A DNA stretch of 41,116 nucleotides from Candidatus Woesearchaeota archaeon (GTDB lineage: Archaea > Nanobdellota > Nanobdellia > Woesearchaeales > GCA-2687795): positions 1 to 41,116 of the forward strand of contig JASMCJ010000061.1 in NCBI GenBank assembly GCA_030753365.1, given 5' to 3'. The notes under the pieces were generated by a model. It had not been told where the DNA came from. It worked only from the letters and a program-made list of their open reading frames with translations, and did no database searches. The first letter of the stretch is position 1; every line of letters starts with the position of its first letter. Positions 2,539 to 20,317 of this stretch are shown one piece after another. A program made the translations under genes and the position numbers.

Positions 2539-2706
2539 TTATTTCATGCCATGCGCTTTCTCAAACTTCTTCTCATCATTTGGCGATAACGGCTCAAAAA
2601 TAAGACCGCAATCCTTGCAGATAACCTGCTGCTTTCTGTCGTTATGTATAATGTTTGAGCTGCCGCAATCAGGGCAAGCATTCACTTCATGTATATCTTT
2701 AATCAT
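2539..2706 (-). CDS. small zinc-ribbon protein (55 aa), TFIIB-type N-terminal ribbon-like
   Basis: Hand translation: MIKDIHEVNACPDCGSSNIIHNDRKQQVICKDCGLIFEPLSPNDEKKFEKAHGMK. It has a CxxC-x15-CxxC pattern and is below the ORF-track size cutoff. Confidence 0.55.
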   Translation of the reverse strand: MIKDIHEVNACPDCGSSNIIHNDRKQQVICKDCGLIFEPLSPNDEKKFEKAHGMK

Positions 2707-2790
2707 ATTATGAGCATTATTCTGCTTTATTTATAAAATTTTTGCTCAGATTAAGAAAGGTTTTTAAACTGATAATCAATTATCTAGAAT

Positions 2791-3048
2791 ATGAAAGCAG
2801 TAATAGCAAATTTCAGAAGAGGAAGGCACACACAGACCTGCAACCAGATGATAATCAAGGTTACAGATGTAAATAATAAAGACAAAGCCAAAGAATTAAT
2901 AGGCAAAACAGTAACCTGGAAAAGCCCTGCAGGAAAAGAAATCAAGGGCAAAATCACAAAAGAGCACGGAAACTCAGGTGCTGTGAAAGTTCTATTTGAG
3001 AAAGGCATGCCTGGTCAGAGTATAGGAACTTCTATTGAAATTCAGTGA
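2791..3048 (+). CDS. rpl35ae: 50S ribosomal protein L35Ae (eL33)
   Basis: RRGRHTQ...WKSPAGKEIKGKI...GAVKVLFEKGMPGQSIG is the characteristic L35Ae pattern. Confidence 0.9.
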   Translation: MKAVIANFRRGRHTQTCNQMIIKVTDVNNKDKAKELIGKTVTWKSPAGKEIKGKITKEHGNSGAVKVLFEKGMPGQSIGTSIEIQ

Positions 3049-3049
3049 T

Positions 3050-3802
3050 TCATTCTACATGCACATATTCTCCATGCGTAAAAAATCCCACAGCTTGCTT
3101 TATCCCTGCAACCTTAGAAAACAAATCTCTCTCAAGCGAAACCGTATTCTTATCAAACAAGCTAAAAATCTCAGGCTTAAAAACATAAATGCCAGCATTC
3201 ACAACATTTGAAACGCTCTCCTTTGGCTTCTCCTTAAAATCAACAACCAGGTCACCATCCAGCACAACATTACCATACTCTGCAGTCTTCTCCCTAGTCA
3301 TCAGCCCCAAAGTCATTAACTTATCATTCTCAAGATGCTTCTTAACCATCTTCTTCAACTCAAACTCATTATAAGTATCACCGCTAATAACCACAAAACT
3401 CTTCTTCAGCTTATCCCTAATTGCGCCCAAAGCTTCAGCATTCCCTTTAGCTTCCTTTTCAAAAACCCTAACCTCAATCCCCAATTCCTTAGTCAAATCA
3501 ATCACATCATTAATCAATGGGCTATGCTGTGTAACAATAAACACTTCCTTTATTCCATTACTCTTAAAAAACTCAAGATGTCTTGTAATTAATTCTTTGC
3601 CATTAACATCCTTCAGCAAAACATTATGCTGATCTTTCCTTATAAGAATAACCGCTGTTGTAATACTCTGCTCTCTCAACCCTTTTCCAAGAAACAATTC
3701 AATAGCCTGGCTCCTTGACCTGATAAACGAGCCATCCACTTTACCATCTACATCATCCAGCAAATCCTTATCCATTGAAATAGCAATCTTAACCTTCTTC
3801 AT
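3050..3802 (-). CDS. ribbon-helix-helix domain fused to a sugar-phosphate nucleotidyltransferase-like domain (G-rich loop degenerate)
   Basis: The N-terminal KVKIAISMDKDLLDDVD...RSRSQAIELFL looks like a CopG/NikR-type RHH. The body resembles NTP_transferase (GNAEALG, ISGD, NAGIYVF), but AVILIRKDQHNV replaces the LAGGxGxRL loop. Confidence 0.65.
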   Translation of the reverse strand: MKKVKIAISMDKDLLDDVDGKVDGSFIRSRSQAIELFLGKGLREQSITTAVILIRKDQHNVLLKDVNGKELITRHLEFFKSNGIKEVFIVTQHSPLINDVIDLTKELGIEVRVFEKEAKGNAEALGAIRDKLKKSFVVISGDTYNEFELKKMVKKHLENDKLMTLGLMTREKTAEYGNVVLDGDLVVDFKEKPKESVSNVVNAGIYVFKPEIFSLFDKNTVSLERDLFSKVAGIKQAVGFFTHGEYVHVE

Positions 3803-3891
3803 CAGTATGAATATAGAATACCATCTTTATTTATATTTATCTATTATTTATAAGAAATTTTATAAACAAAACAGGGATAATAACCATTAAA

Positions 3892-15311: not shown

Positions 15312-16577
15312 TCAGTCAACAAACTCAATTCCAAGCTCATTCTCAATCTCTTTCTGTCTCTTATCTCCCATGCCCTTCCCTGGCCCGAATATCTGCGTTG
15401 ACTTAACCCCTGTAACAATCAGCATAGTTCTGATAGTCTTATCCATATCCTCAGAAATCTGCGCTCCCCAAATAATCCTTGCATCCTCATTAAGCTTCTC
15501 AGAAACCGTTTCCACAACTTTCCTTGCCTCATCAAGCGTCATATCAGAGCCTCCGCACACATTAATCAAAGCTCCATTAGCATTAGAAATATCAACATCC
15601 AGTAAAGGATTTGCAATAGCCTTCTCAACAGCTTCAACAGCCCTGTTATCAGTATCAGACTCACCAACACCAATCAATGCAACCCCTCCTTTGCTCATCA
15701 CAGTCTTAATATCCGCAAAATCAAGGTTAACCAATCCTGCTTTAGTAACAAGCTCAGCAATCCCTTTAACAGCATTCGTCAAGATCTCATCAGCAACTCT
15801 AAAAGCAGTATGAAGCGGTAAATCCGGAGCAAGCTCCAGCAATTTATCATTAGGAATAACAATCAATGTATCAACAGTATTCTCCATCTTCTCAAGGCCA
15901 ATCATAGCATTCTCATACCTTCTATTGCCTTCCATAACAAAAGGTATAGTAACAATCCCCACAGTCAACGCGCCAATCTTCTTTGCCACATCAGCAATCA
16001 CTGGAGCAGACCCAGTACCAGTTCCTCCTCCAAGCCCACAGGTAATAAAAACCATATCAGCATTCTGTAATGAAGCCTTAATCTCATGTTCACTCTCCCT
16101 TGCAGCCTCTTCACCAACCTTTGGGTCAGAGCCAGCACCCAATCCCTGAGTAAGCTCTCTTCCAATCAAAATCTTTTTAGAAGCATTAGTATAAAGCAAA
16201 TCCTGCGCATCCGTGTTCACAGCAATAGTCTCAGCGCCTGTTATCCCAACCTCACTAATCCTATTAATAGTATTATTCCCCCCTCCACCAGAACCTACAA
16301 CCTTAATTGCAGCCTTTTGTTTGGCTAAAAGCATCTCAAGCTCAGCATCAATATCATTTGGATTTCTCTCAGACTTTTCAGGCTCTGTGAAAGGAACATT
16401 AGATTCAGGAACAACTATCTTTGGCTCTTCTGGAGGAGCAGACTCAGAATTATCTTCTGCTGGCCTAACCTCTTCTCTCTGCTCTTCAGGATACCTTTGA
16501 TTAGTCTCCTGATTATCATCTTGAACATTATTATTTTCTTCCGAATTATGTGCTGGTATCTCTACAAAATCATCCAC
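15312..16577 (-). CDS. ftsZ: cell division protein FtsZ with acidic N-terminal extension
   Basis: [11 protein letters not shown] tubulin signature and NTDAQDL. Confidence 0.95.
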
Positions 16578-16668: not shown

Positions 16669-17562
16669 CTACAGCCTGACACATGTCTCTTCAAGCTTCT
16701 TCAGTTTCTCATAATTCTTATCCAAATGTAACTGAACCTCATTAACTTCTTCACCTGTCATATGCTTAAACCTTCCTTGTGTCTTTAGATGTTCTATAAC
16801 AGGAACAAAAGAAGAAGGCTCTTTAGTAAACTTCAACACACCATTCTCTATCTCATACAAAGGTGTAACCTTGCTCTTAAAAGCAACCTTCGCAACCTCA
16901 ACAGTCTGACTGGGAGAAATCTTCCATCCAGGCGGGCATGGGCAGTACACCTCTATATAAGCCGGCCCTTTTTTAGCCAGGCCTTTCTTAACCTTATCAA
17001 TATAATCCTGCACAAAAGCAATATTAGCTGTAGCCACATAAACACCCTCATTATGCGCAGCAACAATCAAAGGCATATGCTTCTTCCATTCCATTTTGCC
17101 ATGCACAACCTTCCCTGCAGGAGACGTAGTAGTAGATGCATACTTAGGCGTTGCCCCGCTCCTTTGAATGCCAGTATTCATATAAGCATTATTCTCATAA
17201 CAAATATAACAAAAATTCTGCTGCCTCTCAATAGCAGCGCTCAAAGCCTGAAACCCAATATCAAACGTGCTTCCATCCCCTCCAATAACCAGCAAATTAA
17301 CATTCTCTCTCTTCCCCTGCCTCTTCAATGCCCTGTCAATCCCTGAGCCAACTGCAGCAGCATTCTCAAAAGCCGCATGAATCCATGGAACCCTCCATGC
17401 AGTCTCAGGATAAGGACTGCTCACAACCTCCATGCACCCAGTCGCATGGCTAATAATAGTATTCTTTCCCGCAGCCTTCAATGCATGTCTCATTGCCAGC
17501 GCAGAGCCGCACCCAGCGCATGCCCTATGCCCCTTTGCAAACAATTCTTCTTCAGGTATCAT
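16669..17562 (-). CDS. porB: pyruvate/2-oxoacid:ferredoxin oxidoreductase beta subunit (TPP-binding)
   Basis: N-terminal CAGCG cysteine motif and GDGSTFDIG TPP-binding motif. Confidence 0.9.
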   Translation of the reverse strand: MIPEEELFAKGHRACAGCGSALAMRHALKAAGKNTIISHATGCMEVVSSPYPETAWRVPWIHAAFENAAAVGSGIDRALKRQGKRENVNLLVIGGDGSTFDIGFQALSAAIERQQNFCYICYENNAYMNTGIQRSGATPKYASTTTSPAGKVVHGKMEWKKHMPLIVAAHNEGVYVATANIAFVQDYIDKVKKGLAKKGPAYIEVYCPCPPGWKISPSQTVEVAKVAFKSKVTPLYEIENGVLKFTKEPSSFVPVIEHLKTQGRFKHMTGEEVNEVQLHLDKNYEKLKKLEETCVRL

Positions 17563-17565
17563 TTT

Positions 17566-17871
17566 TTACTTACCAAACGTATCTACTCTTTCACAAACCT
17601 TAATCTTATCTTCAAGCGAATGAACCTTTCCATCCTTCTTCTTCCCATTAAACTCCTTCTTCCATGCATGAGTGCCATCCCAGCCGTCATGCCCTGAACC
17701 ATGAAAATCAACCTTAACCCTGTTTTCTTTACTACACTTCCTGCACTCAATCACTTTGTAATGATGCAACACTTCAAACGCTGACTTCCATTTCTCTCCT
17801 TTCAGCTCATGATTGCAGTAAATACAGTTGCTCTTCTGATGTTCCTCCTTCAGTAAATGATGCTTTGTCAC
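17566..17871 (-). CDS. small CxxC...CxxC zinc-ribbon/rubredoxin-like, His-rich protein inside the por operon
   Basis: CIYC-x23-CRKC plus FHGSGHDGWDGTH. Tightly packed between porA (23-nt gap) and porB (3-nt gap). Confidence 0.5.
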   Translation of the reverse strand: MTKHHLLKEEHQKSNCIYCNHELKGEKWKSAFEVLHHYKVIECRKCSKENRVKVDFHGSGHDGWDGTHAWKKEFNGKKKDGKVHSLEDKIKVCERVDTFGK

Positions 17872-17894: not shown

Positions 17895-18938
17895 TCAGTA
17901 AACCCATTCAATATCCTTTTTGCTTCCTATCTTACCAACCACTTCTTCAACATGTTTAACAGTAATATCCCTTCCTCCAAGTCCAATAATAAAATTATTC
18001 ATCTTGATTTTATCAGATAAAACCGCTTTTAAATCAGTAAACAATGCACCATAATTTCCAAACGATATATTCTTATCCAATACAGCCATCCCTTTTAAGC
18101 CTTTTGAAACTTCAACCAGCCTTTTCTTTGGAAACGGCCTATACGTCTTAAGCTTAATCATCCCAACCTTCTTGCCATCCTTCCTCATCTTATCCACAGC
18201 AACTCTCACAGTGCCGCACACAGAACCCATGCACACAACAGCCTGCTTAGCATCATTCATCTTATAACCTTCAAGGATACCATCCCCATAATCCCTTCCA
18301 AACTGCTGCTTAAACTCAGTATTAACCTTCTTTATAACCTGCAACGCACTCTCCATTGCCTTCTGCTGCGCATGCTTAAAATACATAAAAGAATCAGGAA
18401 ATCCAACCGGTCCCATAGTCAAAGGTTTCTCTGGGTCAAGCTTATAAACCGGCTTATACGGTGAAAGGAACCTATCAACACTCTTCTGCTCAGGAATATC
18501 CACTGGCTCATAAACATGCGACAAAGTAAACCCGTCAATGCAAACCATTGCAGGCAGCAGCACATCTTTATTCTCTGCAATCTTATAAGCAATTATCATC
18601 GTATCCAGTGCTTCCTGTGAAGACTCCGCATAAAACTGCATCCAGCCTGAATCTCTTGCAGAAATGCTATCCTGATGATCATTCCAAATATTAATAGGAG
18701 CGCTCAATGATCTATTAGCAATAGACATCACAACCGGCAGCCTCATCCCTGAAACCACAAAAAGAATCTCATGCATTAATGCTAATCCTTGTGATGCAGT
18801 GGCACTAAACGTCCTAACTCCAGTAGCTGAAGCACCCAAAGCAGCAGACAATGCAGAATGCTCTGACTCCATATGAATCATCTCACTATCTAGTATGCCA
18901 TCATTAATAAAACTCGCAAGCTTTTCAACAATGTGAGT
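17895..18938 (-). CDS. porA: pyruvate/2-oxoacid:ferredoxin oxidoreductase alpha subunit, downstream part (exon 2)
   Basis: THIVEKLASF...ESEHSALSAALGASATGVRTFSATASQGLALMHE matches the PorA/KorA N-terminal domain from the conserved IVE onward. The first roughly 32 residues are missing from this frame. Confidence 0.85.
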   Translation of the reverse strand, partial: THIVEKLASFINDGILDSEMIHMESEHSALSAALGASATGVRTFSATASQGLALMHEILFVVSGMRLPVVMSIANRSLSAPINIWNDHQDSISARDSGWMQFYAESSQEALDTMIIAYKIAENKDVLLPAMVCIDGFTLSHVYEPVDIPEQKSVDRFLSPYKPVYKLDPEKPLTMGPVGFPDSFMYFKHAQQKAMESALQVIKKVNTEFKQQFGRDYGDGILEGYKMNDAKQAVVCMGSVCGTVRVAVDKMRKDGKKVGMIKLKTYRPFPKKRLVEVSKGLKGMAVLDKNISFGNYGALFTDLKAVLSDKIKMNNFIIGLGGRDITVKHVEEVVGKIGSKKDIEWVY

Positions 18939-18970
18939 CTCCACTAGGAGAAGTGTTTAACTTCTTCCTA
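18939..18970 (-). other. 32-nt intervening sequence in porA (candidate BHB-type mRNA intron)
   Basis: Sense strand: CAA|UAGGAAGAAGUUAAACACUUCUCCUAGUGGAG|ACU. Its length is not a multiple of 3 and it begins with an in-frame UAG. The fold has a hairpin plus a 4-bp CCAC/GUGG helix flanked by bulges. Confidence 0.55.
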
Positions 18971-19066
18971 TTGTGGCGTAATCGGATACATTGGAATAAC
19001 AGCTGGCCTGCAAAGTTTTACGCCGATGGCAACAGCCACTGAGGCTTCAATTACTTTTTTTGCCAT
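18971..19066 (-). CDS. porA: porA upstream part (exon 1, 32 codons)
   Basis: ATG at 19066. It encodes MAKKVIEASVAVAIGVKLCRPAVIPMYPITPQ, ending in the conserved YPITPQ, then a TAG. Confidence 0.7.
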
Positions 19067-19120
19067 ATTAAATTCTTTCTAAAGGAAATATTTAAATATA
19101 TCTATTTTTACCGTACAATA

Positions 19121-20317
19121 ATGGGTAGTAAAATGGTAAAAATGCATCTAACTCAAATTCCTTCTGAAAGAATTTACTTAAAACTAAACAAGAAAGTAAT
19201 AAGATTAATTACTACTTTGGTTAAAAAAACTAATCTGGTTTTAAGTCAGGAGATAACAGAACAACTATACCGTTTTAAGATTGGCAAAAAGGTTTCGATA
19301 CATTTCATTAAGAAAATTTCAAGAATGCTTGAAATAGGGAACAAATTTATTGAGGATAATACTGACTTAATAACAAGTTGTAAAAGTACCAATGTAGGAA
19401 TAAAAAAACCGAGATTCCCATTTGACTTTACAAACAAAAATGGAGTAAGATTAATTTCAGCAATAATGGGCGATGGAGAGATAAATAGCCAGATAATAGT
19501 AAGATATAATAACCAGAAGAAAGTGTTAATTGATGGTATCTTAAATTGCTTCAAAGAGGTTTTTGGGGATGTAGATTATAAACTCTATTTAAGAGACGAT
19601 CAAACATACCAACTAGTTTTTCCTAAAATAGTAGGATTAGTTTTATTAAAAGTTGGCTTAAAAGAAGGCTATAAGTCAATAACAAATTATTCTATTCCTT
19701 ATTTTATTTTTAATTTGGATATAGATAAAAAAGGAATCTTTATTAAACAGTTTTTTACTGATGAAGGAAATGTTAGATTAAAAGATAGGAGACTCCAAGT
19801 AAAACAAACCTTAAAAATTGATTCAACCAAGAAGACACTTAGGCTTGAACCTGAAGAATACGCACCAAATTCCCTAAAAGGAATTAAACGGTTATTATTG
19901 GATCTTGAGATAACTTCAAAAATCTCTTTAGGTGCTTATAGGGAAAATGAAAAAAAGGCTGATTGGGAACTTTCTATTTATGGTAAAGAAAATCTAGTAA
20001 AGTTTCAAGAAAAAATAGGATTCTATTTAGAGTATAAGAATAAACTTTTAGAGAATGCAATAAAAAGCTATAAATTTCCTTCTGCTCCTAGAAACGGAAG
20101 GATTGAGTTTGCTTTGGAAAAATTTAAAATTGTTCAAACCAAATATGGTTTTGTTACAAAATACCTTCTGTCAGAAGAAAGCAGAAGGTCTATAAAAACA
20201 GCTATCTATTTTTTAATTGATTTAAAGAAAAAAGGTTTTATAAATGAAATTGAGAGGCCAAGAGACAAAAAAGGGCATCCAAAGGCTAGGAAGTATAGCT
20301 TGAATAATAACCTGTAA
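19121..20317 (+). CDS. free-standing double-motif LAGLIDADG endonuclease-like protein with N-terminal HTH-like module
   Basis: Motifs LISAIMGDGE and FIKQFFTDEGN. Divergently transcribed, 55 bp from porA exon 1. Confidence 0.65.
   Translation: MGSKMVKMHLTQIPSERIYLKLNKKVIRLITTLVKKTNLVLSQEITEQLYRFKIGKKVSIHFIKKISRMLEIGNKFIEDNTDLITSCKSTNVGIKKPRFPFDFTNKNGVRLISAIMGDGEINSQIIVRYNNQKKVLIDGILNCFKEVFGDVDYKLYLRDDQTYQLVFPKIVGLVLLKVGLKEGYKSITNYSIPYFIFNLDIDKKGIFIKQFFTDEGNVRLKDRRLQVKQTLKIDSTKKTLRLEPEEYAPNSLKGIKRLLLDLEITSKISLGAYRENEKKADWELSIYGKENLVKFQEKIGFYLEYKNKLLENAIKSYKFPSAPRNGRIEFALEKFKIVQTKYGFVTKYLLSEESRRSIKTAIYFLIDLKKKGFINEIERPRDKKGHPKARKYSLNNNL

Follow-up and report, generated by a model that had tools for sequence, protein, structure and literature searches.

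The closest described counterpart of the element discussed here is the cbf5 pre-mRNA intron of Crenarchaeota, reportedly treated in Watanabe 2002, Yoshinari 2006 and Yokobori 2009. Our element is a 32-nt interruption of porA, the gene for the alpha subunit of a pyruvate:ferredoxin oxidoreductase (PFOR), in a stretch of 41,116 nt (hereafter the window) from a Candidatus Woesearchaeota archaeon, and we consider it likely to be a relaxed bulge-helix-bulge (BHB; HBh'-type) intron of the porA pre-mRNA that is genetically coupled to a divergently oriented LAGLIDADG gene. The cbf5 introns are 16-44 bp long with relaxed motifs, are too short to encode a nuclease, are of unclear origin and have no known endonuclease partner (PMC2738675). 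One further BHB intron lies in the 5' untranslated region (UTR) of Haloferax HVO_1309 (PMC7714728); reviews and primary papers to 2025 name only cbf5 and this 5'-UTR intron, and literature searches turned up no described BHB intron in porA, nor one in any other protein-coding gene of DPANN archaea.

The porA element resembles that of cbf5 in being a short intervening sequence within a protein-coding gene, BHB-bounded and often relaxed, in falling at a codon of a catalytically important and highly conserved motif, in having some lengths that are multiples of three and in its patchy gain and loss. It differs in that Cbf5 is an RNA-modification enzyme and its intron crenarchaeal, whereas porA encodes a central metabolic enzyme and its insert is found in DPANN archaea; in that a free-standing LAGLIDADG gene is strictly linked to the porA intron; and in that splicing of cbf5 has been confirmed experimentally whilst that of porA is predicted from sequence. 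Non-canonical tRNA introns with relaxed motifs, reportedly covered by Marck & Grosjean 2003 and by the work of Fujishima/Kanai, share with the porA insert one canonical bulge between a 4-bp helix and an inner helix and have the other site in a loop, but in porA the host is an mRNA, and synonymous codon choices build a distal exon-exon helix in place of the outer helix. Relaxed HBh' and hBH motifs do exist and their cleavage has been attributed to broad-specificity endonucleases, and DPANN archaea have alpha4 splicing endonucleases (EndA) whose L3 loop has been linked to disrupted tRNA genes (PMC5829648). The splicing of XBP1 and HAC1 by IRE1 and RtcB is alike in that a short intron is cut from stem-loops by a protein endonuclease, followed by RtcB-type joining; the endonuclease and the motif are unrelated, the process serves endoplasmic reticulum stress regulation, and the analogy with porA is a functional one only. 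The XBP1 intron is 26 nt long and its removal changes the reading frame. A role for the RtcB ligase in XBP1 splicing has been described (PMC8718801).

The window comes from the chromosome of a DPANN archaeon and encodes MCM, TBP, Kae1, ribosomal proteins, RNA polymerase subunit D, GluRS, ProRS and FtsZ. The initial annotation had reported porA to be split by 32 nt on the minus strand (18970..18939), and both the coordinates and the sequence of the split are as it described them:

18971-19066, minus strand: porA exon 1, starting at the ATG at 19066, 32 codons (MAKKVIEASVAVAIGVKLCRPAVIPMYPITPQ) that end ...YPITPQ and are followed by TAG (18970-18968), from the list of open reading frames (ORFs) and their translation
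18939-18970, minus strand: candidate mini-intron of 32 nt (UAGGAAGAAGUUAAACACUUCUCCUAGUGGAG), the removal of which restores YPITPQTHIVE
17895-18938, minus strand: porA exon 2, starting ACU CAC AUU (THI), 347 codons and a stop, with THIVEKLASF... in the other frame

When 18970..18939 is taken out, porA encodes a 379-aa protein that matches Pfam POR_N and PFOR_II and gives a gapless alignment (E = 6e-122) with 9bt4_B, a PFOR alpha subunit of solved structure, YPITPQTHIVE being identical in the two. Exon 1 gave its own tblastn high-scoring segment pair (1-32, 100%). The top matches of the window PorA are from Woesearchaeota and Nanoarchaeota metagenome-assembled genomes, at no more than 69% identity among species representatives, and its nearest relative is that of locus L157 at 79% identity.

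The insert is not peculiar to the window. Among the 80 best PorA loci of a GTDB set with one genome per species, the frame changes exactly at Q32/T33 in five and a further eight have in-frame inserts with stop codons at the same place, so that 13 of the 80 carry an insert, and all 13 fall in the DPANN part of the set. In the remainder, which are intronless, PITPQT or PITPST runs uninterrupted (67/67), and with the gapless alignment to 9bt4_B this bears out the contiguous YPITPQT-IVE segment that had been assumed for this family of enzymes. A scan of metagenomes with a pattern that called for the flanking codons only (YPITPQ ... THI, gap 15-45 nt) and did not require the helix found ~24 further interrupted porA genes; its remaining matches were ordinary in-frame coding sequence in other oxidoreductase families, or unrelated genes. 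Altogether 44 loci, the window and 43 others, all from DPANN archaea, have an insert at the same codon boundary; the count is made up of the 13 GTDB representatives, the ~24 metagenome contigs, loci found from the endonuclease side (see below) and two samples of the window's own species. This recurrence at one site supports the junction CAA|ACU, proposed earlier as restoring both frame and motif. An assembly artefact was considered as a source of the insert and is ruled out, as the insert recurs in 44 independent assemblies, two of which (L155 and L156) are from other samples of the same species and differ from the window by a single base in the hairpin loop.

The inserts are 20-38 nt long and all three classes modulo 3 are represented amongst them. 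Every one contains a stop in the frame of exon 1 within 0-12 codons, most commonly TAA as the third codon, and the insert can therefore never simply be translated, and yet both exons are intact in all 44 loci across a range of ~40-80% protein identity. On the PorA tree the genes with the intron are intermingled with those that lack it, and presence is patchy even in close relatives (L092 vs L157; L044 vs L024 and L162; L090 vs L006; L043 vs L034). The intronless L162, at ~90% nucleotide identity to L044, lacks exactly the 29-nt intron; the two also show five synonymous differences in the 24 nt around the insertion site. A sequence UUUAAG recurs in the 5' hairpin arm at intron positions 7-9 of most loci (e.g. 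L003, L030, L044, L084) and sets TAA as the third exon-1-frame codon in the majority of the introns, the window having TAG as its first codon; the introns could share it by descent, or unspliced mRNA could be under selection to terminate early.

Folding of an 81-nt region of the window gives a minimum free energy (MFE) of -18.5 kcal/mol (z = -2.48, with 3/200 shuffles as stable), and at such a z the single window sequence is suggestive and not decisive. The fold comprises CCAC:GUGG, a hairpin of AGGA(A)GAAGU with ACUUCUCCU, and a distal CAAUGU:ACAUUG helix between the exons:

18973-18976, minus strand: 5' strand of central helix H, exon CCAC (the Pro31 codon and the first base of the Gln32 codon), which pairs with 18941-18944
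18941-18944, minus strand: 3' strand of central helix H, intron GUGG, from fold and covariation
18970-18972, minus strand: 5' bulge A-A|U, with the cut predicted at 18971/18970 from the restored reading frame
18946-18969, minus strand: inner hairpin h' of 9 bp, with A18965 bulged and the loop UAAAC, from the fold
18938-18940, minus strand: 3' splice-site trinucleotide A-G|A within an internal loop, with the predicted cut at 18939/18938
18988-18993, minus strand: exon-1 arm of the distal helix, CAAUGU, from the MFE fold
18929-18934, minus strand: exon-2 arm of the distal helix, ACAUUG, from the MFE fold

It is the comparison between loci that carries the argument, as the same layout is found in essentially every member. 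Exon CCNC pairs with an intron GNGG situated six to three nt from the 3' end of the intron; on the 5' strand three bases, A-R|W, are left unpaired after the 4-bp helix in nearly all loci; a hairpin of 5-14 bp has its closing pair abutting both bulge and GNGG; and on the 3' strand GNGG is followed by A-N|A, two nt past helix H. The central helix is perfect in 40 of the 44 loci and its third pair varies as a pair (A-U in 33, G-C in 6 and U-A in 2), CCAC/GUGG being found in most, CCUC/GAGG in L096 and L124, and CCGC/GCGG in L121, L158 and L160. It had been anticipated that close relatives would either be intronless or carry compensatory changes in CCAC/GUGG, and both are seen, in intronless relatives such as L157 and in these variants. 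The two predicted cut sites lie two nt 3' of the 4-bp helix, each on its own strand, in 44/44 loci; such two-fold symmetric geometry is a hallmark of BHB substrates and is the rule by which the initial annotation had placed its cuts.

A covariance model (R1) built from six members recovered 43/43 of the sites searched with no other match in 396 kb, and found the window copy at 18930-18982 with 37 bits (E = 1.8e-7). In the R1 alignment 97.3% of helix cells are paired, vs 68% when shuffled and 31-43% when partners are slid by 1-3 columns, and whilst fitting the alignment to the model somewhat inflates pairing, raw folds of each sequence give the same picture. Compensatory double changes occur at all nine hairpin pairs, 146 cells in total, with a covariation score of 0.677 vs 0.168. 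In summary, the proposal of a relaxed BHB intron in the porA mRNA finds support in these comparative data, namely the 44 loci, the covarying 4-bp helix and the cut sites.

The part of the motif that departs from the canonical form is the outer helix. In many members there is instead a long distal helix between exon 1 and exon 2, as in L042 where UUCCGGUGUAU pairs with AUAUACCGGAA, and the 3' site sits in an internal loop closed by it. For the best duplex between the exons the median is -17.7 kcal/mol when the intron is present vs -9.6 kcal/mol in intronless DPANN orthologues (Mann-Whitney p = 1e-8), and synonymous recoding (150 per gene) gives a mean z of -2.35 vs +0.08 respectively (p = 1e-7), these p-values being subject to phylogenetic non-independence, although the two classes of gene are interleaved on the tree. 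A recoding z below -1.64 is seen in 62% of intron-bearing and 6% of intronless genes. Taken together the duplex and recoding tests indicate selection on the distal helix, with synonymous positions adapted to RNA pairing in intron-bearing genes only.

On these grounds we hold it highly probable that the insert is removed at the RNA level by a BHB-type mechanism. The archaeal splicing endonuclease EndA would cut two nt 3' of the central helix on each strand and an RtcB-type ligase would join CAA to ACU, so that the message would read ...YPITPQTHIVE... and give a full-length PFOR alpha subunit, with the intron released. The spliced junction is predicted to be ...ACGCCACAA|ACTCACATT... and the junction peptide YPITPQTHIVEK; an unspliced porA mRNA would stop after 32 codons.

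Several observations weigh against this reading. The helix adjacent to the 3' bulge has only 0-2 bp, which fails the canonical hBHBh' definition; given this and the distal closure the motif is of the relaxed HBh' class and not canonical. In the window's own species the distal helix is weak (z = -0.67, from the identical L155 sequence). Moreover, the window copy has an extra unpaired A18945 opposite the 5' bulge, or else a U18970-A18945 pair that would reduce the bulge to 2 nt; comparable single-nucleotide irregularities occur beside the bulge in L049, L092 and L126, and the other members have a clean 3-nt bulge. Both the minimal outer helix and this irregularity had been pointed out initially as deviations, and both are real. 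In four loci the central helix contains a single mismatch, C.A in L136, L159 and L161 (where CCGC stands with GCAG, at the same position of the 4-bp helix) and U.U in L043; these may be tolerated or may mark non-functional copies. By Pfam annotation of its 33 ORFs the 41-kb window contains no gene for EndA or RtcB, nor for porG or porD. Finally, an exact look-up of the spliced proteins of 10 loci in a collection of 15 billion proteins had no match, and the homologue search returned no near-identical full-length form of PorA; as protein collections are mostly derived from DNA, the absence of spliced forms neither supports nor refutes splicing.

The window was also scanned for further introns. 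A crude scan for a 4-bp helix, 3 nt, a hairpin and the complementary 4 nt gave 75 matches vs 52-71 in shuffled sequence, and the single match that would join ORFs is an in-frame 27-nt stretch that is probably due to chance; the scan is too permissive and in addition missed the window's own intron because of the extra A. R1 had no further match in the window or in 52 loci, and as the model is porA-specific this is not a general negative. An Rfam search of the window found tRNA-His only, without an intron.

The second component of the locus, which the initial annotation did not remark on, lies immediately upstream of porA:

19121-20317, plus strand: free-standing gene for a double-motif LAGLIDADG endonuclease of 398 aa, divergent from porA, with start codons 55 nt apart
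19067-19120, no strand assigned: intergenic region of 54 nt shared by the two genes, with an A/T-rich palindrome ATATATTTAAATAT

From its sequence the palindrome could serve as a TATA element in both directions. The 398-aa ORF matches Pfam LAGLIDADG_3 and also the endonuclease parts of intein models, and has two LAGLIDADG motifs in one chain, AIMGDGE (D118) and FFTDEGN (E215), with GDG117-119 and DEGN214-217 invariant in 41 homologues. A search of PDB sequences found nothing and the relationship needed a fold search: an AlphaFold 2 model (mean predicted local distance difference test score, pLDDT, 92.9) has the double-domain alpha-beta-beta-alpha-beta-beta-alpha fold of LAGLIDADG enzymes, and Foldseek matched it at probability 1.0 to the TliVMA intein endonuclease, PI-PfuI, I-Tsp061I, I-DmoI and PI-SceI, with a template-modelling (TM) score normalised to target of 0.63-0.69 for I-DmoI and I-Tsp061I. 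WhiA, a transcription factor derived from LAGLIDADG enzymes, was also amongst the matches. The protein has extra N- and C-terminal domains, of which the latter resembles a winged helix. The neighbouring ORF is thus apparently an intact and active double-motif LAGLIDADG homing endonuclease, as far as motifs and predicted fold can tell.

This gene is strictly linked to the mini-intron. A tblastn search with the endonuclease against all loci gave matches in intron-bearing loci only: 21 have both elements, 12 the intron without the endonuclease, 33 have neither and none has the endonuclease without the intron (Fisher p = 8e-9; 11 intron-bearing loci with too little flank are omitted). Within the GTDB representatives alone the endonuclease occurs in five of the 13 intron-bearing loci and in none that is intronless. 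The reverse test gives the same result, as 4/4 distant homologues of the endonuclease (39-45% identity), chosen regardless of context, lie between porD and an intron-bearing porA. Its orientation is divergent from porA throughout and 45-90 nt separate the two start codons, except in L096, where a 442-aa paralogue with 33% identity (2553-3878, minus strand) stands on the same strand between porA and porB; the porA of L096 carries the CCUC/GAGG variant of the intron. At the fixed site the endonuclease is sporadic among close relatives: its presence is patchy on the PorA tree, and L157 shares the synteny of the window (ApbE, a hypothetical ORF, porA, the 101-aa ORF described below and porB) but has neither intron nor endonuclease gene. 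The distribution is a nested one, the endonuclease being found only where the intron is present and the intron also without the endonuclease. As the intron is 96 nt inside porA the two elements are ~150 bp apart, which is within a plausible co-conversion tract. The contig of L162 ends 93 nt upstream of porA, exactly at the start of the endonuclease gene in the ~90%-identical L044 (L162:1-420 vs L044:2380-2880), and this may be an assembly break at a presence/absence polymorphism.

Two known systems bear on this arrangement. Collaborative homing was defined for F-CphI and psbA of the cyanophage S-PM2 (Zeng, Bonocora & Shub 2009; PMC6083498). As in that system, a free-standing endonuclease gene adjoins a conserved gene that contains an intron; there the intron is thought to protect the host allele and the endonuclease to give mobility to an ORF-less intron, which the nested distribution at porA fits. 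F-CphI is, however, an Endo VII-type enzyme of a phage, its partner is a self-splicing group I intron and its cleavage specificity has been shown, whereas at porA we have a cellular archaeal chromosome, a predicted protein-spliced BHB mini-intron and a LAGLIDADG enzyme for which cleavage is a prediction. The archaeal rRNA introns with endonucleases such as I-DmoI, I-Tsp061I and I-PorI likewise combine a BHB-bounded intron with a double-motif LAGLIDADG endonuclease, but those introns are long, belong to rRNA genes and contain the endonuclease ORF, whilst in porA the intron is 20-38 nt, is in an mRNA, and has the endonuclease outside it, on the opposite strand and ~150 bp away. What is new here is that a BHB mini-intron of an mRNA is combined with a LAGLIDADG endonuclease that is strictly linked to it but encoded outside it; endonucleases inside rRNA BHB introns and collaborative homing in phages are both known.

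Judging by this linkage, the endonuclease is on balance rather probably the mobility and immunity partner of the intron. It would cut intronless porA DNA at or near the insertion site, that is the uninterrupted YPITPQ|THIVE coding DNA; the intron would split the recognition site and so protect the genome that carries it; and repair from a donor with both elements would co-convert them, which is collaborative homing. Under such a model the intron is kept wherever the endonuclease is present, in an addiction-like manner, as loss of the intron from an endonuclease-bearing genome would be self-destructive. The patchy presence of the elements and the exact absence of the intron in L162 fit this picture. 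Whether the whole amounts to a mobile cassette of two parts in DPANN archaea, in which the free-standing LAGLIDADG endonuclease would be paired with a BHB mini-intron of 20-38 nt that confers immunity to it and is excised from the protein-coding mRNA by the tRNA-splicing machinery of the host, is a question on which we regard the balance as about even.

Two results count against homing. Identities of endonuclease and PorA correlate (r = 0.80, with a mean identity of 0.50 vs 0.56), and such a correlation, with the endonuclease evolving only slightly faster, resembles the outcome of vertical inheritance over a long time and could point to domestication. Furthermore, a tblastn search with 41 family members (E <= 1) for decayed endonuclease remnants upstream of porA in loci with the intron alone gave nothing beyond the noise of intronless controls. 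The alternative that best survives is accordingly that the intron is spliced but the LAGLIDADG protein is a domesticated factor, either a maturase that aids folding of the pre-mRNA or a WhiA-like regulator of por acting through the 54-nt intergenic region. Similar rates under long-term purifying selection, the match to WhiA, the additional terminal domains with their winged-helix-like C-terminus and the lack of decayed copies all speak for it, but the catalytic acids of GDG and DEGN are invariant in the 41 homologues, as expected for DNA cleavage and needless for a maturase or regulator. To our knowledge WhiA lacks the catalytic acidic residues. In addition, the 12 intron-bearing loci without the gene keep porA intact, so that splicing would not depend on it, and the distribution on the PorA tree is patchy. 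We therefore think domestication unlikely.

Could the insert be removed from the RNA by a nuclease other than EndA, a different enzyme recognising the BHB-like shape? The motif is indeed non-canonical and without an adjacent outer helix, but its 4-bp helix, 3-nt bulge and symmetric cuts are the defining geometry of an EndA substrate, and broad-specificity EndAs cut relaxed forms, with L3-loop EndAs being carried by DPANN archaea (PMC5829648). This alternative appears improbable to us, and excision by EndA the better account.

The initial annotation had listed three further explanations that do without splicing, and none of them stands up to the comparison of loci. That translational bypassing or another form of recoding carries the ribosome across the insert is very improbable. 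In phage T4 gene 60 a ribosome hop takes place, and a stop codon that opens the gap or lies close to its beginning, with a stable hairpin after it, gives porA a superficial likeness to it; at porA, however, take-off and landing codons are unmatched, with CAR (Gln) vs GAN before Thr33 and no CAR landing site in every locus, the stop may be anywhere from 0 to 12 codons into a gap that itself varies between 20 and 38 nt, and what is conserved is a helix of exon and gap bases that covaries and has BHB geometry. Frameshifting was rejected as a candidate, as inserts with a length of 0 modulo 3 still carry stops and it cannot help there.

Harder still to uphold is a split gene, in which an N-terminal peptide of 32-35 aa would be accompanied by a 349-aa protein that restarts at the GUG inside GUGGAG. 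An in-frame GUG does stand two codons ahead of Thr33 in 35/44 loci, and gene callers annotate the 349-aa ORF, but the other nine loci have GAG, GCG or GCA there (the 3' strand of H being GAGG, GCGG or GCAG) and lack any in-frame start codon from the preceding stop to Thr33, so that the GUG start codon is not conserved. The base in question covaries with the third position of the Pro31 codon like a base pair, the break would fall inside the invariant YPITPQ|THIVE motif, and both the covariation of the hairpin and the selection on the exon-exon helix would go unexplained. Decay of porA to a pseudogene through a scar or selfish insertion is just as hard to uphold. The frame is broken and the gene is called as truncated, but both exons are intact and conserved in the 44 loci with no second frameshift, porB is intact and the structure of the insert is under selection.

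Turning to the surroundings of the two elements, porA is followed on the same strand by its partner:

16669-17562, minus strand: porB, the thiamine pyrophosphate (TPP)-binding beta subunit and downstream partner of porA, with Pfam TPP_enzyme_C

Between the two genes the window has a 101-aa ORF with a CxxC zinc-ribbon-like character (17566-17871, minus strand), the position of which is kept in ~36 DPANN loci, with the intron or without. In the window porG and porD do not adjoin porAB; in the distant relatives L158-L161 the order is porG-porD-(endonuclease)-porA-porB. The window's FtsZ homologue (15312-16577, minus strand) has an acidic N-terminal extension of ~90 residues ahead of the tubulin domain. 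Further insertions are found in por genes elsewhere. The porA of L135 (1723-3774, minus strand) has, in addition to the mini-intron, an in-frame insertion of ~320 aa at the conserved NIWNDHQD segment with the hallmarks of an intein (...PINIW|C...VHN|C...) and two LAGLIDADG motifs. In L092, L044, L085, L025, L001 and L134, porB has a same-frame insertion of ~1.0-1.1 kb, probably an intein, at a position corresponding to residue ~129 of the window PorB, the gene for which has no such insertion. The por genes of DPANN archaea would thus seem to be a hotspot for selfish elements.

The porA mini-introns are a previously undescribed family that is widespread in DPANN porA. As BHB-type splicing within a coding sequence has been documented solely for cbf5 in Crenarchaeota, porA would, if the reading is true, be the second such coding-region family, and BHB introns in coding regions would not be a crenarchaeal curiosity, as here we would have a central metabolic gene in a different superphylum. 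There is a practical consequence, in that automated annotation truncates porA (349 aa are called vs 379) and so distorts metabolic reconstructions of DPANN archaea. The family also supplies many natural variants of a relaxed BHB substrate, with which the specificity of splicing endonucleases from DPANN archaea can be examined. How introns that are too short to encode anything can be mobile and be retained was left open for cbf5 (PMC2738675), and the strict linkage of the porA intron to a homing endonuclease outside it suggests a route. If the two-part cassette is true it would be the first case of collaborative homing in cellular archaea and the first to be built on a BHB intron, and it would show in action how archaeal mRNA introns without an ORF, for instance that of cbf5, can arise, spread and persist.

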